A DNA stretch of 64,000 nucleotides from Candidatus Eiseniibacteriota bacterium (lineage in GTDB: Bacteria > Eisenbacteria > RBG-16-71-46), in assembly GCA_963776245.1 (NCBI GenBank), contig CAVZLN010000006.1:256001-320000 (forward strand), read 5' to 3'. Below the pieces are notes generated by a model that was given only the letters and a program-made list of their open reading frames with translations, ran no database searches and was not told the DNA's origin. The position numbers and the translations under genes were made by a program. Shown in pieces: positions 31,019 through 62,700 of the stretch (positions are counted from its first letter, which is position 1; each line of letters starts with the position of its first letter).

Positions 31019-31046
31019 TTCAGCCTGCCCGCCCGCGCGCCGATAA
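31019..31046 (+). promoter_or_regulatory. sigma28 (FliA/WhiG-type) promoter of the oxidoreductase-wecB-GT operon
   Basis: TTCAG-N15-GCCGATAA with a perfect consensus -10, about 100 bp upstream of the ATG at 31145. Confidence 0.65.
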
Positions 31047-31144
31047 CGTATGCGATCGGGAGCGTCACGCCCGGGGACGCGGGCCGAGGCGTGAGACGCC
31101 GGCCCAGGAGCATCCGCATACCTGGTTCTCGGCAGGAAGGTGGC

Positions 31145-32464
31145 ATGGCGCTCGATATCGGGATCATCGGCGGCGGCATCTCGGGGCTGGCCAGCGCGTC
31201 ACGGCTGAGCGGCCTCGGCCATCGTCTGACGCTGTTCGAGGGGGACGACGTCCTCGGTGGTCTGGGCACCACCTTCCCCTACCGCGACGGCCACCTCGAG
31301 CGCTTCTACCACTGCCTGCTCCCCGACGATCACGCATTGCTCGCGCACCTGCGCGATCTCGGGATCGAGCGCGAGATCCTCTGGAAGCACACGGCGATGG
31401 GATTCATGTACCAGCGCCGCATCTGGCCGCTGAACACCCCGCTCGATCTGCTGAGGTTCGGCGCGCTCACCCCGATCGAGCGCCTCCGCATGGGCCTGCT
31501 TGGACTGCGCGCGCGCGCCGGCGGGCTCGACCCGCACCTCGACCGCGTGACCGCGGCGGACTGGGTGCGCCAGCAGGTGGGCACGCGCGCCTTCGACGTG
31601 CTGTGGAAGCCGCTGCTCTCCGCCAAGATCGGCGACCACTACGCGGCGTTGCCGGCGCTGTGGCTCACCAGCCGCATGCACCGCGAGAAGAGCGCGCCCA
31701 CCGAGACCAAGGGCTGCCTGCCGGGCGGGTATCGCTCGCTCATCGGCGCGTTCGAGCAGCGCCTGCGCGAGCGCGGCGTGGCTCTCCGCATGCGCACGCG
31801 CGTGCGCGCGATCGAGCGCGTGGGCGAGCGCATGGGCGTGCGGCTCGAGGACGGCACGCTCGAGGTGTTCGACAGCGTGATCGCGACCTCGCCGCTCCCG
31901 CAGTTCCAGCGCATGACCGCGGGGCTCGGGCTCGACCCGAAGCTGGCGGGCCTCCAGCTCGACTACCAGGGCGTGATGAGCGGGGTGTTCCTCACCCGCC
32001 AGCCGCTCACCCGCTACTACTGGATGCCGTGGGTGGACAGCGGTGCGACCTCGCAGGGCGTGATCGAGATGTCGAACCTGGTGCCGCTCGAGCGCGCCGG
32101 CGGGCTGCACGTCAACTACCTGGTGAACTACACCCATCGTGACAGTGCGCTGTTCCAGCAGACCGACGAACAGGTGCTGGCGCTCTATCGCCGCGACCTC
32201 GCGTCGCTGTTCCCCGCCGCCGCGGGGTCGGTGGTGGACGCGTTCCTGTTCCGCGCGCCGTTCGTGGAGCCGATGTGGACCGTGGGCTACCGCCAGGTCC
32301 GTCCGCCCACGTCGGTGGTGCCGGGCCGGCTCTACCTGGTGTGCACCGCCCAGGTCTACCCGCGCGTGAACTCGTGGAACTCGTGCTGCGAGGTGGCGGA
32401 CGAGATGGCGCAGGGATTCATCGCGGAGACCGCGGGGCTCGCGGCCGCGGGGGCGCGCGCGTGA
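31145..32464 (+). CDS. FAD-dependent oxidoreductase (amine oxidase/protoporphyrinogen oxidase-like)
   Basis: IGIIGGGISGL, FEGDDVLGGL and LERFYH. Confidence 0.85.
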   Translation: MALDIGIIGGGISGLASASRLSGLGHRLTLFEGDDVLGGLGTTFPYRDGHLERFYHCLLPDDHALLAHLRDLGIEREILWKHTAMGFMYQRRIWPLNTPLDLLRFGALTPIERLRMGLLGLRARAGGLDPHLDRVTAADWVRQQVGTRAFDVLWKPLLSAKIGDHYAALPALWLTSRMHREKSAPTETKGCLPGGYRSLIGAFEQRLRERGVALRMRTRVRAIERVGERMGVRLEDGTLEVFDSVIATSPLPQFQRMTAGLGLDPKLAGLQLDYQGVMSGVFLTRQPLTRYYWMPWVDSGATSQGVIEMSNLVPLERAGGLHVNYLVNYTHRDSALFQQTDEQVLALYRRDLASLFPAAAGSVVDAFLFRAPFVEPMWTVGYRQVRPPTSVVPGRLYLVCTAQVYPRVNSWNSCCEVADEMAQGFIAETAGLAAAGARA

Positions 32465-33534
32465 GGATCGGCATCGTCGTCGGCACGCGCCCCGAGATCA
32501 TCAAGATGGCCCCCGTGGTGCGCGCCTGCCAGAAGCGCGGCGTGCCGTTCGTGCTGCTCCACACCGGCCAGCACTACTCGTTCGAGATGGACGGCGTGTT
32601 CTTCGAGGAGCTCGGCCTGCCGGCCCCGAACGCCAACCTCGAGGTGGGTTCGGGCACCCAGGCGTACCAGATCGGCACCATGATCCTGGGCTTCGAGCCG
32701 CTCCTCGCGCGCGAACGGCCCGACGTGCTGCTGGTCGAGGGCGACACCAGCTCGGTGCTGGCCGGGGCCCTGACCGCGCAGAAGATGGGCATCCCGGTCG
32801 GGCACGTCGAAGCCGGATTGCGCTCGTACGACCGCGGCATGCCGGAGGAGATCAACCGCATCCTCACCGACCATCTGTCGCAGTGGCTGTTCGCTCCCAC
32901 CGCGCACTCGCGCGACATCCTGCTCGCCGAACAGATCGCGGCCGCGCGCATCCATGTCACCGGCAACACCGTGGTGGACGAGCTGCTGCTCCAGCGCGGG
33001 CGCGCGATGCGCCCCGAGTTGTTCGAGCGCTTCGGCGTGGAACCCGGGCGCTACGCGCTCGCGACCGTGCACCGGGCCGAGAACACCGACGCGCCGGCGC
33101 GCCTGCGCGGGATCGTCGACGGGTTGGCGGGCGCCGCCCGGGCGCTCGGCATCCCGGTGCTGGCCGCGCTCCACCCGCGCACCACCGTCCGGCTGGAGTC
33201 CATGGGGATCGTCTTCGACGGCGGGGTGCGCGCCCTGCCGCCCCTGCCCTACCTCGACTTCCTCGGCCTGCACGCGCGCGCCGCGCTGGTGCTCACCGAC
33301 TCGGGCGGGCTCCAGGAGGAGGCGTGCACGCTCGGGGTGCCGTGCGTGACGCTGCGCGACAACACCGAGCGGCCCGAGTCGGTGGAGGTGGGCGCCAACC
33401 TGCTCGCCGGCGCCGCGCCCGAGCGCATCGTGGAGTGCGCGCTCGCGATGAAGGACCGGCCCCGCGGCTGGCCGAACCCGTTCGGCGACGGCCACAGCGG
33501 CGAGCACATCGTGGACCTGCTGCTGAAGGCCTGA
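32461..33534 (+). CDS. wecB: UDP-N-acetylglucosamine 2-epimerase (non-hydrolysing)
   Basis: GTRPEIIKMAP, HTGQH, HVEAGLRS, PEEINR, TDSGGLQEEA and NPFGDG. Confidence 0.95.
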   Translation: MRIGIVVGTRPEIIKMAPVVRACQKRGVPFVLLHTGQHYSFEMDGVFFEELGLPAPNANLEVGSGTQAYQIGTMILGFEPLLARERPDVLLVEGDTSSVLAGALTAQKMGIPVGHVEAGLRSYDRGMPEEINRILTDHLSQWLFAPTAHSRDILLAEQIAAARIHVTGNTVVDELLLQRGRAMRPELFERFGVEPGRYALATVHRAENTDAPARLRGIVDGLAGAARALGIPVLAALHPRTTVRLESMGIVFDGGVRALPPLPYLDFLGLHARAALVLTDSGGLQEEACTLGVPCVTLRDNTERPESVEVGANLLAGAAPERIVECALAMKDRPRGWPNPFGDGHSGEHIVDLLLKA

Positions 33535-33536
33535 GC

Positions 33537-35117
33537 ATGCCCGGACCGACCACGCCCTCGACCCTCGCCGAGCGACGCGGCCTGATGCTGCTGTTGTTCG
33601 CGGCGCTCATCCTGCGCCTGTGGCATCTCGGCGCGCTCAGCCTGTGGACCGACGAGGCGTACATGTGGGCCGCCGTGCGCGGTTCGCTCGGCGAGGTGTG
33701 GCGCTTCTGCATGTACAAGGACGCCAGCCCGCCGCTGTTCCACCTGCTCACCTGGCTGGCGCTGAGGCTCGGCGATGACGAGGCCAACCTGCGCCTGGTC
33801 TCGGCGCTCGCCTCGGTGGTGATGGTGTGGCTGACCTACCGGCTGGCGCGCCTGTGGGCCGACCGGCGCGAGGCCCTGGTCGCCGCGGCGCTGGTGGCAC
33901 TGTCGCCGTTCCAGCTCATGTACGCGCAGGAGGCGCGCAACTACATGCTGGTCGGCGTGTGGACCGTGTTGGCGCTCTACCTGTTCGCCCGCGCGCTGCT
34001 GCTCGGGAGACCACGGGCCTGGTGGCCGTTGAGCGGCGCGATCGCGCTCGGACTGTGGACCCAGCCGATCGCGGTGCTCGGGCTCGGCGCCCAGGGTCTG
34101 CTCGCGCTCATCCGGGCACCCGGCTGGCGCCGCCTGGGGCGCTGGGCGCTCGCGGTCGCGGTCGGCATCGCCCTCTACCTGCCTTGGCTCATCGTCGGGT
34201 TGCAGCAGGCGGCGCACACCGGCGACAGCCACTGGTACATCGACCGGCCCGACAGCCGCGACGCGTTCCAGGTGCTGCGCGCGCTGATGCTCTCGCCGGT
34301 GCCGCTCGTCACCGCCCCGGCGTCCGCGCCGGCGCCCGGGCTCGAGGCGCTGATGCCCCGCGCCCTCGCCCAGTTGCTGCTGCTGGTCCTGGCATTCGTG
34401 CCGCTGGCGATCGGCGCGTCCGCGGGGATCCGGCGGGACGCCCGCGGCGAGGGCGCGCGCTTCGCGCTGGTGGCGCTGCTCGCGCCGCTGCTCGCGGTGT
34501 TCGCGCTGTCGTTCAAGCAGTCCTTCTGGCTGCCGCGCTACTTCGTGTTCCTGACGCCCTTCGTGGCGCTGTTGACCGCTTCGGGGCTGATGCGGATGAG
34601 ACCCGGGGCGCTGGCGCGCGGGTGGGGCGTCGTGCTCCTGGTGGTCTCGGCGTACGCCTGCGTGCGCGTGGAATGGGATTACGGCAAGGAGCGCTGGCGC
34701 GAGGTGACGCGCTCGATCGTGGCGCGCGCCGTGGCCGGCAGGAGCGCGGTGCTGGTGCCGTACAACAGCGCGCCGGTGCTCTACTACGAGCGCACGCTGA
34801 CGGCGCCGCCGCCGGCGTTCGAGGTGTCGCACCCCGACGTGCCGTTCCAGTCCGAATGGACGCCCGCGCAGATGGAGGAGATGTCGCGCACGGCGCGTGC
34901 CCAGGTGGTCGGGCGCGAGGACGTGTGGGTGATCGTGTGCAGCCCCAGCTCGGAGCCCCGCCGCCGGGTCGCGGCGCTCGCCGAGTCGGCTGCCGCCGGT
35001 GAGGGCCGCGCGCTGGTATTGCGCGAGACCTGGGACTCCACCACCGGTCCGCTGCACGTGTCGCGCTACCGCCGCGGCGCGCCCCCGATCGACGCGAGGC
35101 TCGAAGCCGGGAAGTAG
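33537..35117 (+). CDS. GT-C membrane glycosyltransferase (PMT/ArnT-like, GT39/GT83)
   Basis: SLWTDE, PPLF, LRLVS, YAQEARNY, PRY and many TM segments. Confidence 0.85.
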   Translation: MPGPTTPSTLAERRGLMLLLFAALILRLWHLGALSLWTDEAYMWAAVRGSLGEVWRFCMYKDASPPLFHLLTWLALRLGDDEANLRLVSALASVVMVWLTYRLARLWADRREALVAAALVALSPFQLMYAQEARNYMLVGVWTVLALYLFARALLLGRPRAWWPLSGAIALGLWTQPIAVLGLGAQGLLALIRAPGWRRLGRWALAVAVGIALYLPWLIVGLQQAAHTGDSHWYIDRPDSRDAFQVLRALMLSPVPLVTAPASAPAPGLEALMPRALAQLLLLVLAFVPLAIGASAGIRRDARGEGARFALVALLAPLLAVFALSFKQSFWLPRYFVFLTPFVALLTASGLMRMRPGALARGWGVVLLVVSAYACVRVEWDYGKERWREVTRSIVARAVAGRSAVLVPYNSAPVLYYERTLTAPPPAFEVSHPDVPFQSEWTPAQMEEMSRTARAQVVGREDVWVIVCSPSSEPRRRVAALAESAAAGEGRALVLRETWDSTTGPLHVSRYRRGAPPIDARLEAGK

Positions 35118-36917: not shown

Positions 36918-37109
36918 GGAAGCCGCTGCCCGCTTCACCTCGGGACCGACGGCACGCGGGGGCCGATGCCCGCGGCGCAGGTTCCTGTCCCGGCGCCCAG
37001 CCTCTTCACCTCGCCGCCAGCGGCTTACGAACCACCCCGCGCCCGCCGCCGATGATAGTGTCACGCGGACGTCACCGCGCCCGGGCCGCGGGGCGGACGA
37101 GGAGTGGCC

Positions 37110-37772: not shown

Positions 37773-37787
37773 GCGGCCGCCCGATCC

Positions 37788-47638: not shown

Positions 47639-49382
47639 TCAGGCGTGGCCGGAGGTGGGCGCCGGGCGGCCCGCGGCGGGGAGCGTGAAGAAGAACGTGC
47701 TGCCCACGCCCGGCAGGCTCTCGACCCAGATGCGCCCGCCGTGCTGCTCGACGATGCCCTTGCTGATCACCAGCCCGAGACCGGTGCCACCGGCCTTGCG
47801 GGTCGCCGACGAGTCGATCTGCGAGAACTTGCGGAACAGCTTGGCGAGATCCTGCGGCGCGATGCCCTCGCCGTGGTCCCGGACCCCGACGCGCACGCCC
47901 TCCTCGCCCACCTCGGCGCCGATCTCGATGCGCCCGTTGGTGGGCGAGAACTTGATCGCGTTCGAGAGCAGGTTGGTGAGCACCTGGGCGATGCGGTTGG
48001 CGTCCATCATGAGGTCGGGCAGCTCCCCGGGAAGCACCAGGTCGAGGTGGATGCGGCGCTCCTCGATCAGCGTGCGCAGGTTGTACGCCGCCTGCTGGAC
48101 CACCGGTTCGAGCCGCTGGCGCTCGATGCTCATCGGCAGCGAGGCCGCCTCGATCTTCGAGAAGTCGAGGATGTCGTTGATCAGCACCAGCAGGCGCTCG
48201 GCGTTGGCGTGCGCGATGGTGAGCAGCTTGCCCTGCTGATCGGTGTTGTGGAAGTAGTGGTCGTCGGCGAGCAGCTCGATGGCGCCCTTCACCGAGGTGA
48301 GCGGGGTGCGGATCTCGTGCGACACCACCGCGACGAAGTCCGACTTGAGACGGTCGAGCACCTTGGTGTGCTCGAACAGCTGGGAGTTCAGCACCGCGAG
48401 CGCGGCCTGCGAGGCGTAGAGCATCATGAAGCTCTCGTCGTCGTCGCTGAAGCCGCCGGGCTTGTCGAGCAGCGCCAGCACGCCGATCACGCGCCCCTCG
48501 GCGAGCAGCGGCACCGCCGAGCATCGACGTGGTGCGCCGGTTCTCGATCCCGGGCACCTCGAAGGGCTCCGCGCCCACCCCGGTGGAGAGCCGCCGCGGC
48601 GTCTGGCCGGTGGCGCATTCCCACAGCGGGCCGCTCGGCTCGAGGGCCGCGGGCATGCCGTCCTCGCGCAGCTCCACGGTGGCGCCGTGCGCGGCGGCCA
48701 CGCGGAACTCCGCGGTGTCCTCGACCCGCAGGTAGACCACCGCGGCCGCCGAGCCGCCGGAGAGCTCGGCGCCCTTCTCGCACACCATCGCGAGACGCGG
48801 CGAGAGCTCGAGGTCCGCCATGATCGCCTTGCTGACGTCGTAGAGCGCGGTCATCTGCCAGGTCGCCAGGCGGACGCGCTCGCGCAACTCGTGCTCGTGG
48901 TGCTGGAGGATCTCGTTCTTCTGGCGCAGCTCCTCGACCAGCTGGCGGTTGACGGCCCGCAGCCGGCGGTGCGCCACGGCGCGGTCCACGATCTGCTCGA
49001 GGTCGTCGAGGTCGAACGGCTTCGGCACGTAGTCGTAGGCGCCCTGGCGCAGCGCGTCGATGGCGGTGCTGGCCGAGGCGTAGCCGGTGACCACGATGAC
49101 GCCCACCTCGGGGTCCACGCTCTTGGCGTAGCGCATCACCTCGAGGCCCGAGAGCCCGGGCAGGTTGATGTCGGTGAGGATGACGTCGGGGCGCAGCTCG
49201 GGCAGCACGCGCACCGCCTCCTCGCCGCTCAGCGCCACGGTCAGGTCGTAGCCCTTGGCCGAGAGGAACTCGCGGCACAGGTCGGCGACCGTCTCCTCGT
49301 CGTCCACCACCAGCACGCGCACCGGCGTGTCGTGTTCCGACAGGCTCAGCGCGGCGGCGGCTTCGGGCGTCAGCGGTTCCAT
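47639..49382 (-). CDS. Hybrid REC-GAF-histidine kinase (frameshift near 48520)
   Basis: VLVVDDE, TDINLPG, GAYDYVPKPF, a GAF-like region, SHEIRTPLTS, NLLSNAIKF and GGTGLGL. Confidence 0.9.
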
Positions 49383-49395
49383 CTCCGGTCCCCCG

Positions 49396-50358
49396 TCAGT
49401 GCACGCGCGCGCTCGCGCGCGTCACCACCTGCCGCCGGCCGCCCTTCTTCGCGAGCCCCAGCGCCTGGTCCACCCCGTTCATGAGCTCGAGCGGGTCGAA
49501 GCCGTCGCGCGGCGCGGCCACCACGCCGGTCGAGACCGTGAGACGTCCGACGCGGGCGAAGCGGTGCTCCTCGAGCGTGCGCCGCAGGCGCTCCGCCACG
49601 CGGCGCGCGGGCAGCACGTCGGTCTCGGGCAGCAGGATGCCGAACGCGTCGCCGCCCAGCCGCGCGATGATGTCGCCGTCCCGCAGCGCCAGCTTGAGCA
49701 CCAGCGCCACCTCGGCCAGCGCGCGGTCTCCGGCGGCGCGGCCGTAGCGCGCGTTGAGCGCGCCGAAATGATCGAGGTCCACCTCGAGCAGGCCGAGCGG
49801 CACCCCGTGCTCCGCCGCGCGCGCGACCTCCTCGGCGAGGCGCTCGTGGAACGCGCGCGCATCGGGCAGCCCGGTGACGGGGTCCCGCCCCGGCTGCTGA
49901 CGCAGGCGCGCCAGCTCGAGGCGCGCGCCGAGCGCGGCGCCGAGCGCGCCCGCGGCGGTGCGCATCAGCGCGTGCTGCGCGGGTGACCAGCGCCGGCCGG
50001 GATGCGCCAGCAGTTCGAGCGTGCCGACGCGCTCATCGCCGCGCGACAACGGCACCGCCATCACGCCGCGCAGATCGCCCGGCTCGCGTTCCCAGGGCCC
50101 GCGTGCGCACGAGCGCTCGAGCCTGCCCTGCGGTCCGAGCGCGTGGAGCGAGGCGCCGGCGCAATCGAACGCGCGCACCAGCGCGTCGAGGGCACGGTCG
50201 AGCGCGCGCGGTTCGGACGCCGCGGAGAGCAGCGCCTCGCAGGCGGCCCACAGCAGGCGCGACGCGCGGCGGCGTCCGTCGGCGGTGTCCGGCGGGTCGC
50301 CGACCCGTGTCCGGGCGACGCCGGCGGTGGCCGTCTCACGCCGCGCGGGCCGGAGCAT
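49396..50358 (-). CDS. GGDEF-domain protein with GGDAF variant motif
   Basis: DPVTGL, DLDHFGALNARYG, RDGDIIARLGGDAF and KKGGR. Confidence 0.88.
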   Translation of the reverse strand: MLRPARRETATAGVARTRVGDPPDTADGRRRASRLLWAACEALLSAASEPRALDRALDALVRAFDCAGASLHALGPQGRLERSCARGPWEREPGDLRGVMAVPLSRGDERVGTLELLAHPGRRWSPAQHALMRTAAGALGAALGARLELARLRQQPGRDPVTGLPDARAFHERLAEEVARAAEHGVPLGLLEVDLDHFGALNARYGRAAGDRALAEVALVLKLALRDGDIIARLGGDAFGILLPETDVLPARRVAERLRRTLEEHRFARVGRLTVSTGVVAAPRDGFDPLELMNGVDQALGLAKKGGRRQVVTRASARVH

Positions 50359-50740
50359 CGGATCCTCCGATCGAGTTCTTGAGGTCGCGCAGCCGGCCCG
50401 CGGCCTCCTGGATGCGGCCCGACTCACGCAGCATCACTTCCAGCCGCTCACGCACGCCGGGCTGCTGACCCGCCGGGCCCATCAGGAGCAGCTGGGCATG
50501 GCCGCGGACCCCCACCAGCGCGTTGTTGATCTCGTGGTGCGCCCCGAGCACTCGCCCGGCCTCCGCGTCCCACGCCTGCTGCTCAGCCCACCATGACGCG
50601 AGCGTGGCGCGCAGCGCGCGCGCGGCGTCGGCGTGGCCGGCCTGCTCGAGCTCGGCGGCCTGCGCGCCCAGCCGGGCGCGCAGCGCGAGCCACGGGGCCG
50701 GCTCCGAGCCGGCGCCCGAGCCGGGACGGGGCAGGCTCAC
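50336..50740 (-). CDS. Stand-alone HisKA/DHp-like protein without ATPase domain
   Basis: HHEINNALVGVRGHAQLL...ESGRI. Its GTG start overlaps the fliA stop codon. Confidence 0.65.
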   Translation of the reverse strand: MSLPRPGSGAGSEPAPWLALRARLGAQAAELEQAGHADAARALRATLASWWAEQQAWDAEAGRVLGAHHEINNALVGVRGHAQLLLMGPAGQQPGVRERLEVMLRESGRIQEAAGRLRDLKNSIGGSDAPARAA

Positions 50741-51588
50741 GCCGCCTCCTCTTCGAGCATCGCCTTGCCCAGCCGCAGGCGCATGCGGGACATCGCCCGC
50801 GTGTGCACCTGGGACACCCGCGACTCCGAGATGCCCAGCGTCCGTCCGATCTCCTTCAGCGTCAGGTGCTCGTAGTAGTAGAGCGAGACCACCAGCCGTT
50901 CCTGCTCCGGCAGCTGGTCGAGGGTGCGCAGCAGCACCAGGCGGGACTGCTGCTCCTCGAGGCGCTCCTGGTAGTCCACCACCGCCGGGTCGGCGAGATG
51001 GTCGCCCAGCGTCGCCGGCTCCTCGCCGTCGCCCGAGCGGCTCTCGTCGAGCGACACCAGCACGGCGCCGCGGACGTGATCGAGCAGGCGGTAGAAGTCG
51101 GGGCGGGTCATCTTCATCTCGCGCGCGACCTCCTCCTCGGAGGCGGCGCGGCCGAGCTTCTGGTCGAGCTTGCGCGTCACGCCGTCGAGGTTGCGCGCCT
51201 TGCGCCGCATCGAGCGCGACACCCAGTCGAGCGCGCGCAGCTGGTCGAGCACCGCGCCCTTGATGCGCCACACCGCGTAGGTCTCGAACTTCACGCCCTT
51301 GCGCGCGTCGAACTTCGCGTGCGCGTCGAGCAGCCCGAGCACGCCGGCCGAGTAGAGGTCCTCGTGATCCACGTTCTTGGGCAGCGTCGCCGCGACGCGC
51401 TCCACCACGTGGCGCACCAGCGGCGCGAAGCGCTTGAGCAGGTCGTTCTTCGAATACTGCACCGCGGCGGGCGCGGGCTGCGGGCGCGCGGCGCGGCGGG
51501 TGCCCGTCACCACGACGAGGCGCGGCGCGGGTCGGGCGGCGGGCGAGGACTTGGCGGTCGCGGTGGCGAGGATGGCAGGGCGGGCCAT
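50737..51588 (-). CDS. fliA: RNA polymerase sigma factor, FliA/WhiG (sigma28) family
   Basis: DLYSAGVLGLLDA, KFETYAVWRIKGAVLDQLRALDWVSRSMR and LTLKEIGRTLGISESRVSQVH. Confidence 0.94.
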   Translation of the reverse strand: MARPAILATATAKSSPAARPAPRLVVVTGTRRAARPQPAPAAVQYSKNDLLKRFAPLVRHVVERVAATLPKNVDHEDLYSAGVLGLLDAHAKFDARKGVKFETYAVWRIKGAVLDQLRALDWVSRSMRRKARNLDGVTRKLDQKLGRAASEEEVAREMKMTRPDFYRLLDHVRGAVLVSLDESRSGDGEEPATLGDHLADPAVVDYQERLEEQQSRLVLLRTLDQLPEQERLVVSLYYYEHLTLKEIGRTLGISESRVSQVHTRAMSRMRLRLGKAMLEEEAA

Positions 51589-51602
51589 GGGAATGAACCT
51601 CC

Positions 51603-52503
51603 TCAGGCTCTGAGACGTTCGACGCTCGGGGTCACGTCGGATGCCGGGGGCGAAGGGACATCCCAGAGCCGACCGGCCAGGGCGCGATAGGCCGCCGCGG
51701 CCAGGGACTGCGGGAAGGCGGTGAGCAAGGGTTCCTGCCGGCGCACCGCGCCGGGCACGGCGGGGTCGAGCGGCACCCAGCCCCAGTAGTCGATCTCGAG
51801 ACGCAGGAAGCGGCGGGCCACCAGGCTGATGCGATGCGACGTCTCCTCCGCCTCCTCGGGGCTCGCCGCCATGCTGACCACGAGGTGCGGCGCCCGCGTG
51901 AGGCCCTGGCGCTGGAGCAGCTTCACCAGGCCGTAGGCATCGGAGAACGCCGGCATCTCGGGCGTGGTCATCGAGCAGCACGTCGTCGGCGGACAGACAG
52001 AACGAGGTCACCTGGCGCGAGACGCCCGAGGCGGTGTCGATGAGCACCAGGTCGGCGTCCGCGGCGAGCGTTCCGAGGCCGCGCAGCAGGAACTCGCGCC
52101 GCACGTCGTCGAGCTCCGCGAGCTCGGGCTCGTTGGAGGCGGCCGGCACCAGCGTGACGTTCTTCGGTCCCCGGATCGCGATCTCCTCGAGCGTGCGCTC
52201 GCCCGCGAAGACGTGCTGCAGGTCGTAGCGCGGATGCACGCCGAGGAGCAGGTCGAGGTTGGCCTGCGAGAAGTCGGCGTCCACCAGCAGCACGCGGCAG
52301 CCGCGCTCGCCGAGCGCGATCGCCAGGTTGGCCGCGAGGTGGCTCTTGCCCACCCCGCCCTTGCCGCTCGCCACCACCACGGTGCGCACGCCGGGGCGTG
52401 CCCACTGGGCCGGATGGTCGCTCTCCCCCGAGGTCGCGTGACCCGGGACCACGCGCAGGCCGGCGCGGGCCGCGGGCGTGTCGTTTCCGCGGCGCGGGCT
52501 CAC
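51603..52503 (-). CDS. flhG: FlhG/FleN MinD-family ATPase (frameshift near 51970)
   Basis: ASGKGGVGKS, LLVDADFSQANLD, IDTASG, TTPE..AFSDAY and VRRQEP. It lies directly upstream of fliA. Confidence 0.85.
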
Positions 52504-52745
52504 GCGGCCAGCCCCGTGGCGCGCGACGCGCCGGGCAGCGTCATGACCGCACGCAGGAATTCCCAGTAGCGGCGCTGCTCGCGGCAGCGGCGCAGCGCGA
52601 GGTCGAGACCGAGGCGCGAGAGCCGGCGCTCCTCCTCGCGCAGCGAAGCGAGCGCGGCGTCCAGCGCGTCGAGGCGCGCGCCTTCGCCCGCGGGCACCTC
52701 GCGGCGCGGATCGGCGGACGGCGTCACCGGCGGGCGGCGGTTCAC
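52500..52745 (-). CDS. Small helical hypothetical protein (81 aa)
   Basis: GTGA-type overlaps on both sides. Sequence includes RLDALDAALASLREEERRLSRLGL...EQRRYWEFLRAV. Confidence 0.6.
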   Translation of the reverse strand: MNRRPPVTPSADPRREVPAGEGARLDALDAALASLREEERRLSRLGLDLALRRCREQRRYWEFLRAVMTLPGASRATGLAA

Positions 52746-53059
52746 GACGCCCTCCGCAGCCGCGCGACGCCGACCGCGGCGCGTGCGGCGCGACGCGAAC
52801 CGAGACCGTGATAGGCGCGCGTCAGCTCGGCGAGCAGCGCGCGATAGCGGGCGGTGATGCTGGCCTCGGGCAGCCGCAGCGCGCGCGCGGCCTCGGCCGG
52901 GGTCAGGCGCTCGACCAGCAGCAGGGCGAGCATCATGCGCTCGCGCGGCGCGCAGTGTTCGAGCGCGTCGAGCAGGCGGCGCCGGATCACGCTGTCGGCG
53001 AGCGCGGGCCCGTCCGCGGGCGGGCGGCGCGGCGGCGGCGCGGCGCCGGCAGTCCTCAC
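52742..53059 (-). CDS. sigma70 region-4-only protein
   Basis: LDALEHCAPRERMMLALLLVERLTPAEAARALRLPEASI aligns by eye with region 4 of the neighbouring FliA ([36 protein letters not shown]). Confidence 0.7.
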   Translation of the reverse strand: MRTAGAAPPPRRPPADGPALADSVIRRRLLDALEHCAPRERMMLALLLVERLTPAEAARALRLPEASITARYRALLAELTRAYHGLGSRRAARAAVGVARLRRAS

Positions 53060-53458: not shown

Positions 53459-53497
53459 GGCGAGGCTCTCCGGGGTGAGGTCGCGGAGAACCCGTTT

Positions 53498-53513
53498 TGC
53501 AGTCGTCGTGCCA
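53498..53513 (-). promoter_or_regulatory. sigma54 promoter of the REC-sigma4-ORF-flhG-fliA operon
   Basis: TGGCAC-GACGA-CTGCA, 40 bp upstream of the ATG at 53458 and just downstream of a sigma54 activator gene. Confidence 0.8.
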
Positions 53514-53787
53514 GAGGTGGACGGCGGGCGCCGCAGGGCGGCCGTCGGGGTGGTCGCGGGGGCGAAGTGCGCCGGGATGGCGGCTGCATCCGGTTCGAGG
53601 TCAGCGGGTTAGCGCGGCACCTCAGGTGCCGCTGGGCCGCTGGGAATCGCTGTCCGGGGCGCCGGCCGCGGGGGCGTCGGCTCCGGGCGCGTCCCGCGTC
53701 TCAGAACGCCCGCTCAAGCGCGTTCCGCATGGTCACGCGCTCCGACCGTAACTGGCCGGCGGGCGAGCCGGAAGCGGCCGGCAGGGC

Positions 53788-55204
<1,417 letters not shown>

Positions 55205-56460
55205 GACGTTTCTCCACCGGGAAGTTGAGGAGCAGGGTCGTGCCGCGTCCTTCGCGGGTCGCCACCTCGATGGCGCCGCCGTGCTCCTGCATGATGGTCT
55301 GCGAGATCGCGAGCCCGAGTCCGGTCCCGCGCGACTTGGTCGAGAAGAACGGATCGAACATCTTCTCGAGCACCCCGCGCGGGATGCCGGGGCCGGTGTC
55401 GATGACGCGCACCTGCTGGAACTCGATGCGCGTGGCGTGCTCGCGGGCCCGGTGCCGCGATCGTCGGCCGCGCCGGCCCGGTCCGCGCGGCGGGGCGCGG
55501 CGGCGCACCTTGCGCACCTCGTAGCGCAGCGTGCCACCGGCCTCCATGGCCTGCACCGCGTTGAGGCTGATGTTGAGCAGCACCTGCTGCACCAGGTCGG
55601 GGTCGATGTAGAGCGTGCCCAGCCGCGGCGCGACGTCGCGCTCGACCGTCACCCGGGCCTGCGCGATCGGCTCGGCGAGCAGCTCGACCACGCGGTCGAC
55701 GCACGCGCCGAGCTCGGCGGGGCGCAGCTCGGGGGTGCGCGGGCGCGCGTACTGGAGCAGGCTGGCGACGATGCGGTCGAGCCGCGCCACCTCGTCGAGG
55801 ATGACCTGCACGAAGCGCGCGCGGTCGTCGCGGGGCTCGAATCGGCGCAGCAGCACCTGCGCGCTGGTGCCGATGCCGGCGAGCGGGTTGCGGATCTCGT
55901 GGGCCACGCCCGCGGAGAGCTGGCCGAGCGTGGCGAGGCGCTCCTTGCGCCGCAGCTCCTCCTGCAGGCGGCGGGTGCGCGTCAGGTCGTGGAGCACGAT
56001 CAACGCCCATCCCGGACGGTCCGAGCCGGGTGCCGTGCAGCAGCACCGGCACCTCCACCCCGCCCTCGCCGAGCAGCACGGTCTCGCGTTCGATGCGCGC
56101 GCGGCGCGCGAGGTCGCCCGACCGGGTCGTCGCCCGGCACGCATGCTGCGGAACAGCTCGCCGGCGGCGCGCCCGCGGGCGCGCGCCGCGCGCACGCCGA
56201 GCAGGCGCGCGGCCACCGGATTGAGCATGGCGACGCGGCCGCGCGGCGTCGAGCAGCACGACTCCGGCTTCGACGTCGGACATGAGTGCCCTGAACAGGG
56301 CATCGGGCGGCGGCATCCGTACCGCCGGGGCGCGCGGGGCGCGCTTCACGGGCATGACCGCTCCATGGCGCGGGCAGTATAGCCGCGCGGAGCCCATGGG
56401 CGATAGCGCCGTGATGCGGGTCGTGTGGCCGGAGCGGGCCGGGTGCGCGCGGCGCGCGGC

Positions 56461-56652
56461 TCAGCGGCGGCGCAGTTCCTCGAGGAGTTCGTCGACCAGC
56501 CGCGACTTCACGTCGTCGCGGTCGTACCAGCCGGCCGCGACGCGGGCCCGGGCCGTGGCGATGTGGGGCCAACGGATGTACTCGTCGATGCGCGCGGGCG
56601 CCTGGGCCGGGACGGCTGCCGGGCCGCGGGTGGAGCGTGAGGACGGGGTCAT
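56461..56652 (-). CDS. FlgM-like anti-sigma28 factor (63 aa)
   Basis: [32 protein letters not shown] resembles the FlgM C-terminal pattern (R..kV..lk..I..G.Y.vd...iA..ll). Its ATG overlaps the csrA stop. Confidence 0.6.
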
Positions 56653-56975
56653 CGTTCCTCGACGCGGTCCGCGCGGGGACGCCGTGCGCGAGGAGCGCGC
56701 CGCGCCCACGACGGTCGGCCGCCGGTCGTCATCGCCCGGACGTTCAGAGCTTCCCGTTCGGATCCGCGCGGTCCGGGCGGGGTGTCGATCTTGGTTCCCT
56801 GCGCGCGACGGTTCTCTTCCTGGATGCGCGCGTAGATCTCCTCCCGGTGCACCTTGACCTCGGGTGGCGCCTCGATGCCGAGCTTGACCTGGCCGGAGCG
56901 GACCTCGAGCACGGTGATCTTCACCGTGTCCCCGATCCGGATGTTCTCTCCTAACTTCCTTGTTAGGACCAGCAT
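56649..56975 (-). CDS. csrA: Carbon storage regulator CsrA (long, Firmicutes/Spirochaete-like C-terminus)
   Basis: [55 protein letters not shown]. Confidence 0.96.
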
Positions 56976-57029
56976 CTTCCTGAGTTCCTCCGCTCCTTGC
57001 CGGGGCCGGAGGGCGCCCGGACAGTCAGC

Positions 57030-57057
57030 GTATCGGCATGCGTCGCATGCCTCTTGA
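57030..57057 (-). promoter_or_regulatory. sigma28 promoter of csrA-flgM-like
   Basis: TCAAG-N15-GCCGATAC. The spacer overlaps the palindrome GGCATGCG-T-CGCATGCC (57035-57051). Confidence 0.75.
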
Positions 57058-57162
57058 GGCGAGAATAGACACATCCGGGGCCGGCGGCCAAGTGAGGACT
57101 CGCGCTTGACACCGCTGCGAGCGCTTGCGAGCCTGCAGCCGACCACTCCTCCGGAGGTGCGC

Positions 57163-59626
57163 ATGGAACGTGGCTGGCCTTCGCACCTGCTGTCATGGCT
57201 TCTCGTTCCGGCGGTCGCCCTGCTCGTGGCGTCGGCCCTGAGCCTGCCCCGGCGCGGGTACACCGGACTGGTGCCGCGCGGCGACGTGATCGAGAACGTC
57301 GATCCCGGCAGCCCGGGCGCGCGCGCGGGAGTGCGGCCGGGCGACCGCCTCGCTCCCACCCGCGCCGGCGAGGCCCCCGACGCGCCGCTCGTGGCGGCCA
57401 CGCCCGGGCGCCCGCTGACCCTCGTGCTCGAACGCGGCGGCGCGCAGCGGCGCGTCTGGCTCGCGCCCGAGACCCTGCCGCCGGGCGACTGGCGCAAGCG
57501 GGTCGGCCAGCTGCTGGTCGCCGCGGGATTCGTGCTGCTCGGCGGCTGGGTGTGGAGCGAACGACGCGATCCGCTGACGCGCGTCTTCCTGCTGTTCTGC
57601 CTGTCGTTCGCGGTGATGCTGGTGCCCCCTCCGGCTTTCGGGTCCGTCCACGTCACGCGCATCCACGAGCTGGCGATGACGGCCGCGCAGCTGTTCCTGC
57701 CCGCGCTGTTCGTCCACTTCTTCGCGCTGTTCCCCGAGTCGCGCGGCCCGCGCGGAGCGCTCGGCGCCACGGTGAGCGTGGGCTACGGGGTGGCGACCGT
57801 GCTGTTCGTCGCCGCCATCGCCCTCGAGGCGGTGCGGCTGGCGCGCCCGAGCACCGCCCAGGACGCCCTCGACGCGCTCCACATCTCGGCCGGAGCGTGG
57901 TTCGTGATGGGCCTGCTGTGGGCCCTCGCGCTGTTCGCCCGCTCCTATCTGCGCGCCGGCCCCCCCGACGCGCGCCGGCGGCTGCGCGTGGTGCTCGCCG
58001 GCACCGCGCTCGGCGTGATCCCGCTCGCGGGTCTGGTGGCGCTGCGCAACCTGGCGCCGGGCGTGGCGCTGCCGGGCGAGCGCTGGTCGCCGCTGCTCAC
58101 GCTGCTGGTGCCCGCGTCGTTCGCGTGGGCGATCGCGGTGCACCGCATCTTCGACTTCCGCGTCGCGCTGCGCGCGGGCATCGGCGCGCTGCTGGTGGCC
58201 GCGCTCTCGGGCGCGGCGTACGTCGTCGGCGAACGCATCGCGGCGGTGCGGCGCCCCGACCTCTCGGGCGGCATGGGCGGCGCCGCGCTCGCGTTCGTCA
58301 TCGCGGCGCTGGTGGTGGCGGGGCCGGTGCGCCGGCGCCTGCGGGTGCTCACCGGCGGCGAGGGCGGTGAGCGGCCGCTGGCCGAATGGACCGGGCACCA
58401 CCCGTTCGGGCACGACACCTCGGACTCGATCCTGTGCTCGGCGTGCGAGGTGCTCCATCAGGCGCTGCGCCTCGACGGCAGCGCCGTGCTGGTGCCGTCC
58501 CGTGGCGAGGGCCTGGTGGCGGCGAGCGCGGGGGCCTCGCCGGCGGTGCTGCTCGAACGCCTGCCGCTGGACCTCGCCGCCGGCCGGGTGGCGGCGCTCG
58601 AGGACGCGGCGCTCGAGCCCGCCGACCGCGCCGCGCTCGAGGACGCGGGCGCGCGCTGGCTGCTGCCGGTGGGCGAGGCCCCGGCGCGCGCCCTGTTCGT
58701 GCTCGGGCGCCGGCTCGCGGGCTCGTGGCTCGACCACGCGGAGATGGCCGAGCTGCAAGCGCTTCGCCGCTCGCATCGAACTGGCGCTCGAGAACGCGGC
58801 GCTGCGGCGCGAGGCGAGCACGCATGGCCGGCTCGACCGCTCGCTGCGCGAGGCGGGCGCGATCCAGGCGCATCGCCTGCCGCGGCGCGCGCCGGTCTTC
58901 CCCACGCTCGACTGCGCGGCCGCCGCGCTCTCGAGCGAGGCGGTGGGCGGCGACTACTACGACTTCGTCGAGGGACCGTCGCGCGATTTCACGCTCGCCG
59001 TCGGGGACGCGGCCGGGCACGGCGTCCCCGCGGCGCTCGTGCTCGCCGACGTGCAGGCGCGCTTCCGTGCCGCCGCCCAGCGTGGCCAGGCCCCGAGCGA
59101 GGTGCTCGCCGCGCTCAATCACGAACTGGTGCGCCACGGCGAGCCCGAGCACTTCGTGGGCCTGCTGTGCGCCCGGGTCGAGGCGCGCGAGGGCCGGGTG
59201 TGGATCGCCAACGCCGGCATCACCCCACCGGTGCTCCGCCGCCGCGACGGCACCACCAGCCAGCTGCTGGCGGGCGGGGTGCTGCTCGGGGTGCGCGCGG
59301 GCTCGGACTACCCCGAGGTGTGCGTCCAGCTCGCCGCCGGGGACCTGCTGGTCATCCACACCGACGGCCTCACCGAGGCCCGGCGGGGCGAGGAGATGTT
59401 CGGCGACGAGCGCGTCCGGGAGGTGCTCGACGCCCACGCCCACCGCCGGGCGGCCGACATCGTGCAGGCCCTGTTCGAGGCGGTGCGGGAGTTCGCCGAC
59501 ACCCCGCTCGACGACATCACGGTCCTGGTGCTGCGCCAGCTCACCGGGGGGCCCTCCGCCCCGGCCCCGGGCGGCCCGATCCCCACGCTCATGTCCACCG
59601 ACCTGCTGGCCGATACCGAGGGGTGA
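57163..59626 (+). CDS. Membrane PP2C/SpoIIE (RsbU-like) phosphatase with PDZ, multi-TM and GAF-like regions (frameshift near 58760)
   Basis: PDZ motif [16 protein letters not shown], many TM segments, [23 protein letters not shown] and DDITVLVL. Confidence 0.88.
59589..59616 (+). promoter_or_regulatory. Candidate sigma28 promoter inside the 3' end of the phosphatase gene
   Basis: TCATG-N15-GCCGATAC, about 100 bp upstream of the small ORF at 59715. Confidence 0.5.
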
Positions 59627-59714
59627 GGCGGAAGGATCGCCTCGGCGCCCGCGACCGGTCGTCACGGGCAAGTCCCCAAGGGACTGCGCAGGACGCGCGA
59701 AGCGGAGGTGGACG

Positions 59715-59771
59715 ATGGAGCTCGCCGTGGTTCTGGTGCTCCTGGATCTGCTCTGGTGGATCCGCCGCTAG
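59715..59771 (+). CDS. 18-aa hydrophobic microprotein MELAVVLVLLDLLWWIRR
   Basis: SD GGAGGTG before the ATG, GC3-rich codons, and a following AGGCC-GAAA-GGCCT hairpin. Confidence 0.55.
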   Translation: MELAVVLVLLDLLWWIRR

Positions 59772-60608
59772 GCCGAAAGGCCTGAATCATCCGGGCCCGC
59801 GGCGGGCCCGCGGGGCGCGGCAAGCGCCCCAGCGAGCTCCCGCGCCAGTGTGAGCACGCGATCAGCGGAGCCCCGCTGCGGGTCTTCGGACACGGCGCGC
59901 ATGAACGCCGCCCCCACGATGACGGCGTCGGCGACACCGCTCGAGCGCGCGCGCCTGGTCCGCGTTCGAGATCCCGAATCCCACCGCCACCGGCAGGGCG
60001 GCGCGCGCGCGCAGCGCGGCCACGCGCTCGGGCAGCGCCCCGCTCCAGCCTCCCGCGGCACTCCCGGTGACGCCGGTGCGCGCGAGGCAGTACACGAACC
60101 CCCGGCAACGCGCGAGCAGCAGCGGCACGCGCGCGGCCGCGGTGGTCGGCGCGACCAGCAGCACGGTGTCGAGGCCCGCCGCGTCGAACGCGGCCCACGC
60201 CTCGGGCGACTCCTCGGGCGGCAGATCGGAGACGATCAGCCCATCCACGCCCGCCGCGCGCGCGGCCGCCGCGAACTCGGCGGCCCCGGCCCGCACCACC
60301 GGATTGGCGTACGTCATCACCACCACCGGCAGGTCCGACTCGCGCCGCAGGGCGCGCACCACCTCGAACGCCTGCTGGGCTCCCACCCCGCGCGCGAGCG
60401 CCCACTCGGACGAGCGCTGGATCTCGGGACCGTCGGCGATCGGGTCGGAGAACGGGATGCCGATCTCGAGCGCGAGCACGCCGGCCCGCGCCAGCCCGCG
60501 CGCCATCTCGAGGGTGTCCTCGAGCGAGGGGTAGCCGGCCGTCAGGTACGGGATGAGCCCGGTCCGCCCGCGCCACGCCTGGAACGCGGGACCGATGCGG
60601 CTGGGCAT
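59768..60608 (-). CDS. trpA: Tryptophan synthase alpha chain (frameshift near 59950)
   Basis: LIPYLTAGYP, LEIGIPFSDPIADGPEIQ, MTYANP, DLPPEE, GVTG, VGFGIS and ADAVIVG. Confidence 0.93.
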
Positions 60609-60630
60609 GCGGGTGGGAGCGCGGGCGGGG

Positions 60631-61087
60631 CTACGGCAGCCAGCGCGGCTGAGCGTATCCCAGGCCGCCGTACTGCAGCGGCGAGCGCAGCTGATGGTAC
60701 TCGAAGGAGAACTGCGGTGTTCCCGCGCGGCTGCCAGTCCATCCGCAGCCCTTCGAGGAAGAACGGGTTCCTGCCCGAGGCGGCCGCGTCCGGGCCCCAG
60801 CTGTTGCCGAGGCTCACGCTCAGGGCGAACGGAGCGCGGAACTGATAGCTGAGGCTGGTCACCTGGAGCGCGTCGGTGCCGCGGCCCGAGAACCCCCCGA
60901 CCGTGACCGACGTCGAGACGTGCAGGCGCTGCGGATCGATCCAGGACGACGCGCGAGCGAGCGCGCTGGTGGGCACCGGAGGACGCCACGCGCCGAGCGA
61001 CGGGGCGCCGGACTGCCAGGATTGCGCGCTCGCGGGAACCGCCGCGAGGGCGAGCACGAAGGCGCACAGCACGATGTTCTGGCGCAT
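60631..61087 (-). CDS. Secreted hypothetical protein, beta-strand rich (frameshift near 60710)
   Basis: Signal peptide MRQNIVLCAFVLALAAVPASA, plus a TTGACA box upstream. Confidence 0.6.
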
Positions 61088-61161
61088 GGGTCGATAATGA
61101 TAACCGCGCGCCGCCCCTGTCAATGGCGACGGGGAGGCGCGGGTCCAGAGGGTGCAAAAGG

Positions 61162-62424
61162 TCAGGCGGCCTGTTCGTCCTCACCGAAGACGATGCGCAG
61201 CACGATCTCGCACGAGCTGTCGCGCGGCACCCGGATGGGGATGACGACCGGCTTGCGGCCCGGGTGAGCGGACGTCTGGGGCGCGGCCGCTTCCACCGCC
61301 CGCTCGGCCGGAGCGGGGACCACCACCGGGATGGTCCTCGTGACCGGCTCCCGCCGGCTCTCATGCGCGGGCTCGGGCATCGGCTCGGGACGCGTCGAGG
61401 TCTCGAAGTGCGCCACCGGCCGGGGGCGCGCCATGGGCGTGGGAGGCTCGGTGGTCTCCGGGCGCGCCGCGCCGACCGGCGCGTGCGGGGCGGGGACTCC
61501 CGCGCGGGGCGCCGGGGGCGGCGCGCTGGAGCGCGGAGCGGACGGCGCGGCGGCGGCGTGAGCCGCCACCGGAGCGGGCGGCGCCTTCGTCGGCGGCGGC
61601 GGCTCGAGCGCCTGCATCGCGTCGGGCAGCTCGATCTCGCGGCCGTAGTCCACGGCGCCGCGGCCGACCTCCATCACGGGAACGGGCGTCTCCGGCAGCT
61701 CGCGCTGGAGCGCGTGACCGCCCATACCGGGCAGCGCGGCCGGCTGGAAGGCGGCCTCGGCCGCGCGCGCGGGCCCCGGCTTGACCATTTCCTCCGGCGC
61801 CGCGGGGCGCGGCGCGGTGGTCGCGCTGGTGCGCCGCAGGTCCTTGGTCACCTTCTCCATCAGCAGGTGCGAGATGCCGCGGAAGGTCTCGAACACGCCC
61901 TTGCCCTGGGTCGCGACCGCTTCGAAGAACGGGACCTTGCCGCCCGGGTTGAGCTCGGCGTTGAGTTCCTCGACGGAGTAGAGGTTCGGCAGGTCGCGCT
62001 TGTTGTACTGGATCACCCACGGCAGCGCGTCGAGGCTGAGGTTGTACTCGGCCAGGTTGGCGCGCAGGTTGGCGAGGCTCTCCTTGTTCTCCTCCATCTT
62101 GCCGACCTCGGAGTCGGCCACGAACACGATCGCGTCCGCGCCCTTGAGCACCAGCTTGCGCGTGGCGTTGTAGAACACCTGGCCGGGGACCGTGTAGAGG
62201 AGGAAGCGCGTCTTGAAGCCCATGATCTCGCCGAGATCGAGGGGCAGCAGGTCGAAGAACAGCGTGCGGTCGGACTGCGTCTTCATGCTCACCATCTTGC
62301 CGCGGCTGGTCTCGGGGACCGCCTCGTAGATGGATTCGAGGTTCGTCGTCTTCCCGCTCAGGCCGGCGCCGTAGTACACCAGCTTGGCGTTGATCTCCTT
62401 GCCCGAATAGCTCACGACGACCAC
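61162..62424 (-). CDS. mglA: MglA-family small GTPase with long Pro/Ala-rich C-terminal extension
   Basis: KEINAKLVYYGAGLSGKTTNL, DRTLFFD, LYTVPGQVFYNATRK, VFVADS and QYNKRD. SD AAGGAGG precedes the GTG at 62424. Confidence 0.9.
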   Translation of the reverse strand: MVVVSYSGKEINAKLVYYGAGLSGKTTNLESIYEAVPETSRGKMVSMKTQSDRTLFFDLLPLDLGEIMGFKTRFLLYTVPGQVFYNATRKLVLKGADAIVFVADSEVGKMEENKESLANLRANLAEYNLSLDALPWVIQYNKRDLPNLYSVEELNAELNPGGKVPFFEAVATQGKGVFETFRGISHLLMEKVTKDLRRTSATTAPRPAAPEEMVKPGPARAAEAAFQPAALPGMGGHALQRELPETPVPVMEVGRGAVDYGREIELPDAMQALEPPPPTKAPPAPVAAHAAAAPSAPRSSAPPPAPRAGVPAPHAPVGAARPETTEPPTPMARPRPVAHFETSTRPEPMPEPAHESRREPVTRTIPVVVPAPAERAVEAAAPQTSAHPGRKPVVIPIRVPRDSSCEIVLRIVFGEDEQAA

Positions 62425-62672
62425 GGTCGATCCCTCCTTGTGCGACCCCACCCTGTCGCGAGGCAATCCCCCATGGAGCCCCTTGCCGCCCTTTCTCCAC
62501 AGGAACCTCGAGGGTGCGGTGAACCGTCCAGATAGTCGGTGCTTTCGCCGAGCCCGGACGGGCCGACGCGCACCGGATGGGGTCGCCACTCTCGTTACCG
62601 CCGCTGCGGCTCCCTGACGCGAGTCACGCCGCAATCGCCCGGCGCACCGCCGGACGTCTGCTGTCGGTGTGT

Positions 62673-62700
62673 CTATCGGCCCGGCGCCGCACGACCTTGA
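62673..62700 (-). promoter_or_regulatory. sigma28 promoter upstream of mglA
   Basis: TCAAG-N15-GCCGATAG, the same architecture as the csrA promoter. Confidence 0.75.

Follow-up and report, generated by a model that had tools for sequence, protein, structure and literature searches.

A predicted sigma28 (FliA) regulon of type IV pilus, polarity, and cyclic di-GMP genes in a Candidatus Eiseniibacteriota bacterium with no detected flagellum

Introduction

In polar flagellates, the sigma28 factor FliA and its antagonist FlgM control the class III flagellar regulon, within a hierarchy that includes a sigma54 tier, FlhG/FleN, and sigma28-driven expression of flgM. Here, we analyze a 64,000-nucleotide stretch of a Candidatus Eiseniibacteriota genome (GenBank GCA_963776245.1, contig CAVZLN010000006.1, positions 256,001 to 320,000; the window), in which a fliA gene lies close to homologs of these regulators and a sigma28-type promoter motif occurs four times facing downstream genes. 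The window resembles the polar flagellar system in its regulators, in an ancestral cluster of the kind seen in the flagellated relative G037, in its promoter elements, and in a sigma28-driven flgM; it differs in that flagellin, the export gate, and FliW were not found and FlgM is shortened, which would make an export checkpoint impossible. A second precedent is the PhyR-NepR pair of Alphaproteobacteria, an extracytoplasmic function (ECF) system that operates by sigma mimicry and in which the receiver is fused. In the window, too, a sigma-like domain that might titrate an anti-sigma factor stands beside a receiver domain; in contrast to the fused ECF arrangement, it would be a free FliA-type sigma4 domain with a separate receiver (REC) gene. 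PhyR structures are among the PDB matches of the sigma4-only profile.

The nearest described case is that of Rubrobacter radiotolerans, a non-sporulating unicellular bacterium in which, according to the available text of the report (PMC8325347), the sigma28-clade factor WhiG, paired with RsiG, has promoters before type IV pilus and cyclic di-GMP (c-di-GMP) genes, with 12 promoters backed by start-site mapping. Both systems thus place a sigma28-clade factor before these two classes of genes. As far as the same text describes it, the anti-sigma factor in Rubrobacter is the c-di-GMP-binding RsiG, whereas here it is FlgM-like and Gly61 of WhiG is replaced by Glu; the present system also keeps a sigma54 tier, FleN, and CsrA and has MglA and an SgmX-like protein among its predicted targets. 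For WhiG1 and WhiG2 of Actinomycetota, the accessible part of PMC13595943 gives c-di-GMP enzymes, regulators, and some type IV pili as predicted targets and a similar consensus. There, WhiG typically occurs with a flagellar cluster or with RsiG, while 28 of the 40 high-quality genomes surveyed here have FliA without FlhA, and the FliA of the window lacks the RsiG-type glycine. The Myxococcus MglA-SgmX system (PMC7668184) shares with this genome MglA, a tetratricopeptide repeat (TPR) protein that aligns with the two ends of the SgmX model, and the gene order pilB-pilT-pilC-pilS-pilR-pilA of the main pilus cluster; control by FliA is not described in the portion of that source at hand, and the SgmX-like protein here is shorter (~700 amino acids) and under the cutoff. 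Only one marginal MglB-type match was found in the genome. A literature search on sigma factors, flagella, and type IV pili in Eisenbacteria/Eiseniibacteriota, and on FliA with mglA, returned nothing on this system, most subscription papers lying outside its coverage.

Results

The first-pass annotation of the window, made from its letters alone, had listed four sigma28-type promoters, and all four 28-mers are present letter for letter (Table 1). Within the window, GCCGATA is not significantly enriched (7 copies against a shuffle mean of 3.93, with 10 of 100 shuffles reaching 7). In the whole genome (G000, 3.56 Mb and 92.4% complete; other G-numbers are genomes of relatives), the element greatly exceeds chance, and a promoter class of the form TNAAG-N15-GCCGATA can be recognized. 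Upstream of the 140 GCCGATA copies, TCAAG stands 9 times at 15 nt, once at 14 nt, and at none of the remaining distances between 10 and 20. The expected share of gene-facing copies is 57%, but of the 61 intergenic ones, 49 are oriented toward a gene and 5 away from it; this bias ranks second among 568 7-mers of the same composition. In the 49 gene-facing copies, position -20 is T in 34 (p=4e-18), position -18 is A in 25, and position -17 is A in 22. A matrix trained solely on 83 sites from other genomes, with sites counted at a score of at least 14, found 31 N15 sites facing a gene and 1 facing away; the other spacers between 11 and 19 gave 1 to 4 gene-facing sites. A combined matrix marked 51 of 1854 transcription units with 52 sites. 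Exact matches number 6 to 21 per genome in 36 genomes of the family, while control matches total 2.

The motif is also conserved before orthologous genes. The csrA site is kept in 48 of 48 relative loci having 250 nt of upstream DNA, and eight non-target neighbor genes gave 0 to 3 matches in 23 to 78 loci each. The mglA site is present in all 29 family orthologs, with none at spacers 12, 13, 17, and 18; a strict-spacer test recovered it in 5 of 8 loci, two of the misses carrying 16-nt spacers. At the microprotein, a looser pattern, mostly TCAAG, was found in 35 of 35 relative loci. This site is not intergenic; it falls within the 3′ end of the SpoIIE/PP2C open reading frame (ORF; 58367-59626), which it also overlaps in 27 of the 35 loci. 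The sites of csrA, mglA, and the microprotein were part of the scoring matrix, so that cleaner tests come from the oxidoreductase and pilB: the former site occurs in 18 of 26 orthologs with enough upstream DNA (two short loci were dropped), and the weaker pilB sites occur in 25 of 29 orthologs at a score of at least 8 and in 16 of 29 at a score of at least 12, with 11 also scoring at N16 (G000 included). The -35 (TAAA/TCAA) and -10 (GCCGATAA) elements, the fixed spacing, the gene-facing bias, and the conservation agree in pointing to a sigma28-type promoter, as had been proposed, and both elements match the sigma28 consensus given in the available text of PMC8325347 and PMC13595943.

Other promoter-like signals were noted. 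A fifth match in the window, missing from the earlier list, sits in the 3′ end of the sigma54 regulator gene and is kept in 10 of 63 loci, as compared with 3 for control spacers; given this count, autoregulation of fliA through it is retained as a weak possibility. Elsewhere in the genome, a perfect site within a kinase/HD-GYP coding sequence (G000 C3:205441-205467, minus strand), kept in 5 of 10 relatives, is likely an internal promoter, and in two other relatives, a site directly precedes the REC gene downstream of kinase/HD-GYP. The most gene-facing 7-mer of its composition genome-wide is CGCTAGA (55 copies, 30 facing and 1 away), which is probably part of the housekeeping -10 element.

The single gene of the genome above the TIGR02479 cutoff is the fliA of the window. 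Its product has sigma regions 2, 3, and 4 (PF04542, PF04539, PF04545), and its PDB relatives are WhiG and FliA. Regions 2.4 and 4.2, whose residues presumably recognize the promoter, align gap-free with P. aeruginosa-type FliA and WhiG and are invariant in 38 sequences. The motif can be tied to FliA because, in flagellated relatives, its elements also stand before flagellin (in 3 of 4 relatives with a single FliA, at N14) and before flagellar flgM (4 loci). Since the mglA motif stands at N14 in G056 and G038 but at N15 in the family of G000 (f1), a one-base change of the spacer seems to have occurred in f1; the N14 pattern in f1 is near control level. Taken together, these comparisons make it very probable that the window's FliA reads this motif as its promoter. 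RsiG-type control of this FliA was considered and rejected: it has Arg59, Glu63, and Arg64 where WhiG2 has the switch residues Lys57, Gly61, and Arg62, and the accessible part of PMC13595943 reports that Gly61 is required for c-di-GMP/RsiG control of WhiG.

Profile searches of G000 for flagellin, FlhA, rod, and FliW (PF00669, PF00771, PF00460, PF02623) gave no match, and neither flagellin nor other late flagellar genes were found as targets. The regulon had been called mostly non-flagellar; within these searches it looks wholly so, which makes "mostly" too weak a word. In a survey of 61 genomes, FliA was above the cutoff in 58, flagellin was present in 18, and FlhA was present in 15; all 40 high-quality genomes have FliA, with FlhA in 12 and lacking in 28. 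G037 carries a full flagellar cluster between mglA and fliA, interleaved with csrA, flgM, the kinase, the sigma54 regulator, REC, the sigma4-only gene, and fleN. The window has the same order of regulators with the structural genes gone. Judged by this gene order, the locus is the regulatory skeleton that deletion of the structural genes left of a flagellar cluster. Flagellated members of the family have a separate flagellar cluster and a second, distant FliA beside flhA, 37 to 39% identical, which forms a separate clade with 99/94 support; deep branches of this tree are unsettled, and long-branch joins were flagged as a danger. In G002, G020, G018, and G010, the second cluster includes the distant FliA and a full-length FlgM, which suggests that flagella were re-acquired there alongside the retained circuit.

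The first-pass annotation had inferred that FliA controls polarity, envelope glycosylation, and translation. Of these, glycosylation is a minor and less conserved target, and the dominant targets, which that annotation did not notice, lie outside the window, namely, type IV pilus motors, SgmX-like/MglA polarity proteins, c-di-GMP turnover, and sensor kinases. Target contents were determined from the gene, or the two genes, next in line after each selected site (of 112 proteins extracted, 69 and 77 were scanned, with 24 in a further scan); since the assembly is rich in frameshifts and coding segments were called with a purpose-made dicodon model, segment counts are approximate. Five of six PilB/PilT loci are targets, including four MshEN-bearing PilB-family genes and PilT genes. 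Further targets are the SgmX-like TPR protein, two HEAT plus HD-GYP operons, a REC-GGDEF operon with kinase/HD-GYP hybrids, PilZ, an HDOD protein, PAS/GAF/CHASE4 kinases, Hpt, pgaC, GT4, lptC, glycogen phosphorylase, and phosphofructokinase. Target segments (85 of 3496) are enriched for PilB/PilT (7 of 11, p=1e-9), HD-GYP (5 of 7), kinases (10 of 40), and REC (9 of 44). The major pilin, which follows the kinase/regulator pair in the main pilus cluster, is preceded by a sigma54 box. The SgmX-like protein scored 85.7 bits against NF052243 (cutoff, 1800), matching model positions 9-196 and 877-1014; because the score is below the equivalog cutoff, we call it only SgmX-like.

Ten relatives contain 152 exact sites, of which 122 were examined and 92 mapped to genes of G000; by hand count, 62 of these 92 fell on genes with a site of their own, as compared with 51 site-bearing units among 1854. 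The HEAT/HD-GYP and sgmX-like targets recur in 9 of the 10. In flagellated relatives with a single FliA, the motif already stands before non-flagellar genes: sgmX-like in G037, REC-GGDEF in G039, and mglA in G055. The most conserved targets are the HEAT-repeat plus HD-GYP gene pairs at G000 C3:793584 and C3:435056; an Atlas search with the C3:793584 target returned only HEAT-repeat clusters of unknown function, and HEAT proteins resembling these are encoded in clusters of Gemmatimonadota, Nitrospirota, and Myxococcota. A pilT gene lies between accB and accC (G000 C8:307744-310832, minus strand), and a conserved sigma28 site just before accB is also seen in G038 and G056.

Family profiles, PDB matches, and conservation bear out the earlier gene calls for csrA, the FlgM-like gene, mglA, and the microprotein. 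csrA is followed by a gene for a shortened relative of FlgM, a predicted anti-sigma28 factor. Against PF04316, the window protein gave no match and 17 of 30 orthologs matched weakly (best E, 0.0023); its profile matched flagellar-cluster FlgM at 98.3% (E, 2e-14), the comparison set including FlgM proteins over the cutoff. It lacks the N-terminal D-x-V-x-I-S segment of the flagellar-cluster copies, and a PDB sequence search with its profile returned just two chance-level matches. In the absence of an export gate, the FlgM-like protein would need another release route. The operon that ends in fliA is preceded by what we take to be a sigma54 box, kept in 63 of 63 loci as compared with 44 of 1848 transcription-unit starts, and it encodes a sigma4-only protein whose top 7 PDB matches are FliA/WhiG and whose DNA-recognition helix is changed and not conserved. 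A complex model of the sigma4-only and FlgM-like proteins scored 0.63, where the best of 3 controls scored 0.09; the partner predicted local distance difference test value was at least 77, and runs agreed in at least 90% of contacts. Of 157 solved pairs, 116 attain the mark that this model passes, as do 2 of 215 mismatched pairs; these counts hold only roughly with our own alignments. Among the PDB relatives of this FliA is 1rp3, which we take to be FliA with FlgM; because a similar complex has been solved, the pass may show likeness only. It is conceivable, on the strength of this model, that the sigma4-only protein frees FliA from the FlgM-like protein as an export-free decoy.

The rest of the regulatory locus is collected in Table 1. 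The 86-amino-acid helical ORF has no Pfam match. The csrA gene is retained even though the searches for FliW and flagellin were empty, so that the usual CsrA partner switch cannot operate; an assembly frameshift may account for the long C-terminal tail of its product. The kinase/regulator pair may have its own promoter, since the stretch separating the kinase from the flgM-like gene (56365-56410, minus strand) contains a -10-like TATACT element. Divergent from csrA is a frameshift-split gene for a PDZ-membrane and SpoIIE phosphatase protein (57106-59626, plus strand), syntenic in many relatives. The promoter in tandem with the csrA sigma28 site is presumably read by sigma70.

Two of the sigma28 sites are followed by leaders with predicted structure. 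The core of the mglA leader is found in 27 of 30 loci and forms a covarying structure of several stems that bears an invariant loop rich in purines, 10 pairs having two-sided changes; no match at gathering was found in Rfam for 3 loci, and the leader is a candidate new cis-regulatory RNA. The microprotein leader has, in relatives, a conserved central hairpin whose loop reads CCAACC, and a GGTTG farther downstream might pair with this loop; the hairpin is lost in G000. Rfam gave for it only a sub-threshold PrrB/RsmZ match (20.2 bits against a gathering score of 44). With no match at gathering in three relative loci, assignment of either leader to a CsrB/RsmZ-type RNA or a known riboswitch was not adopted. 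The microprotein is taken as real by conservation because its DLLWWIRR peptide is kept in 32 of 35 loci with synonymous changes.

Table 1. Features of the window
Feature	Position	Strand	Evidence or remark
FAD oxidoreductase (PRK07233), wecB epimerase, GT-C glycosyltransferase operon	31145..35117	+	Family matches
Predicted sigma28 promoter TTCAG-N15-GCCGATAA before oxidoreductase operon	31019..31046	+	18/26 orthologs
HisKA-only ORF, GAF-GGDEF, and REC-kinase genes, downstream of fliA	47639..50740	-	Syntenic across class
fliA (sigma28)	50737..51588	-	TIGR02479, 246 bits (cutoff, 189.6)
fleN/flhG-type MinD ATPase, frameshifted	51603..52503	-	Homolog between flhF and fliA in flagellated G037
Small helical ORF, 86 amino acids, between sigma4-only gene and fleN	52500..52760	-	68/70 loci
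Stand-alone FliA-like sigma4 domain, altered recognition helix	52742..53059	-	53/70 loci
Presumed sigma54 -24/-12 box before REC, sigma4-only, coiled-coil, fleN, fliA operon	53497..53514	-	63/63 loci
Fifth sigma28-like match	53812..53840	-	Score 19.3
Histidine kinase and sigma54 enhancer-binding response regulator, both frameshifted	53788..56352	-	Syntenic in relatives
Short FlgM-like predicted anti-sigma28, 63 amino acids, C-terminal R..G.Y helices only	56461..56652	-	Profile similarity
csrA	56649..56975	-	PF02599; NF002469 and TIGR00202 above cutoff
Predicted sigma28 promoter TCAAG-N15-GCCGATAC before csrA and flgM-like	57030..57057	-	25.1 bits, top-scoring site of genome
Tandem sigma70-like promoter TTGGCC-N18-TATTCT, just upstream of csrA sigma28 site	57062..57091	-	Similar -10 in 39/48 loci
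Predicted sigma28 promoter TCATG-N15-GCCGATAC before microprotein	59589..59616	+	Inside 3′ end of SpoIIE/PP2C gene
Structured leader of microprotein, conserved	59622..59714	+	4/17 predicted pairs with two-sided changes
Hydrophobic microprotein, 18 amino acids, ending DLLWWIRR	59715..59771	+	32/35 loci, synonymous codon changes
MglA small GTPase, long Pro/Ala-rich C-terminal tail	61162..62424	-	Solved MglA proteins, E 1e-74 to 4e-71
Long mglA leader, invariant loop, long-range stem ending at ribosome-binding site	62425..62665	-	Candidate structured RNA
Predicted sigma28 promoter TCAAG-N15-GCCGATAG before mglA	62673..62700	-	29/29 family orthologs

Discussion

We propose, with a probability of about 0.8, that the window's FliA reads the motif as its promoter and heads a surface motility/attachment regulon of ~30 to 50 units in a cell that lacks a flagellum. 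The regulon itself appears to be real and to be a new variant of sigma28 reuse, for which Rubrobacter WhiG is the nearest case. In the proposed mechanism, the kinase and the sigma54 activator would switch on the operon holding fleN and fliA, and FliA would set up a negative feedback by transcribing csrA together with the gene for the short FlgM-like protein. Free FliA would drive a pilus system activated at the pole, as in Myxococcus (pilB/pilT/pilC, the sgmX-like gene, and mglA), along with HD-GYP, GGDEF, PilZ, and kinase genes, exopolysaccharide and envelope glycosylation genes, and the microprotein; the major pilin would stay under PilSR and sigma54. FliA may have outlived the flagellum because it already served some non-flagellar genes in flagellated ancestors. 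The weakest step is the release of FlgM, for which the cotranscribed sigma4-only protein would be the leading, if tentative, candidate.

Several observations weigh against this proposal. The absence of a flagellum rests on four flagellar families in a 92.4% complete genome. Exact N15 matches number only 2 to 9 in the rest of the order and 0 to 6 in the rest of the class, relatives are kin and counts among them are not independent, and the mglA count is partly circular because the scoring matrix contained mglA sites. A different sigma factor might read the motif, given that f1 prefers N15 and that relatives with a single FliA have N14 at their flagellin promoters. Enrichment of GGDEF is not significant (1 of 4, p=0.09), one pilT locus has no sigma28 site, 30 of the 122 relative sites have no homolog in G000 and ~30 more map to genes without a site, and the mglA of G037 lacks one. 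The SgmX call depends on two partial matches far under the cutoff. G059 and G053 keep the FlgM-like gene, and no sigma4-only gene was detected in the fetched stretch, so that the decoy would not be universal; G037 has the sigma4-only gene despite its flagellum.

Could another sigma factor, such as the group-3 sigma at C4:279161 or an ECF-type factor, read the N15 motif, leaving FliA a separate relic? G000 has 15 sigma70-family matches, and N15 differs from N14 at the flagellin promoters of f2, a related family with single-FliA flagellated members. Yet both elements fit the FliA/WhiG consensus as given in the available text of PMC8325347 and PMC13595943, the best-scoring site stands before csrA and its flgM-like neighbor, and one sigma with a shifting spacer would be enough to account for mglA at N14 in G056/G038 and at N15 in f1. 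FliA is also 79 to 86% identical over 20 family loci, with invariant DNA-binding regions, and we regard a different reader as very unlikely. Equally improbable in our judgment is a flagellated organism whose cluster is missing from the assembly, the sites being extra members of a flagellar regulon. The completeness of G000 and the presence of flagellar genes in 9 to 10 of 36 family members would allow it, but flagellin and FlhA are lacking in G001, of the same genus (98%), and in more complete genomes such as G003, G011, G014, and G022 (99 to 100%), the structural genes were lost from the middle of a contiguous locus, and flagellated kin carry a second, distant FliA where G000 has only one.

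A further alternative alters the purpose of the regulon and leaves the promoter assignment unaffected: it could serve a stationary-phase or sessile state (c-di-GMP, exopolysaccharide, glycogen, adhesion), with pili used for attachment, predation, or DNA uptake. The targets pgaC, GT4, glycogen phosphorylase, phosphofructokinase, HD-GYP proteins, and MshEN-bearing PilBs would fit such a state. We consider it unlikely, since extension and retraction motors, MglA, and the SgmX-like protein are all targets, a set that drives twitching in Myxococcus according to the accessible part of PMC7668184, and HD-GYP (breakdown) targets outnumber GGDEF; motility is the probable purpose. As to FlgM, its removal by proteolysis or by partner switching, through the SpoIIE phosphatase or the REC protein, is as conceivable as the decoy and would give the sigma4-only protein some other role. 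The syntenic PDZ-membrane/SpoIIE gene, the FlgM-like genes of G053 and G059, and the possibility that the model reflects likeness to the solved FliA-FlgM complex all favor it, while the FliA/WhiG sigma4 matches of the sigma4-only profile, the unconserved recognition helix, and cotranscription with fliA favor the decoy.

The fullest form of our proposal is a complete flagellar hierarchy without a flagellum, in which a FliA-derived sigma4 mimic, made under sigma54, opens the FlgM checkpoint, normally opened by export, and the output combines a Myxococcus-type MglA/SgmX type IV pilus with c-di-GMP functions; the mimic, like some of the non-flagellar targets, would predate the loss of the flagellum. 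In this form it is somewhat doubtful; if true, the early origin of the mimic and of these targets would explain why the circuit survived. The predicted regulon, and the motility mode that it implies, are to our knowledge the first for an uncultured and widespread lineage. They point to a route by which a sigma factor may outlive its machine, through prior service to a second motility system, and would tie sigma28 to MglA/SgmX polarity control. They also raise the question of how FlgM is relieved without an export apparatus, with a named candidate, and place two unclassified leader RNAs and a conserved microprotein in the same predicted regulon.

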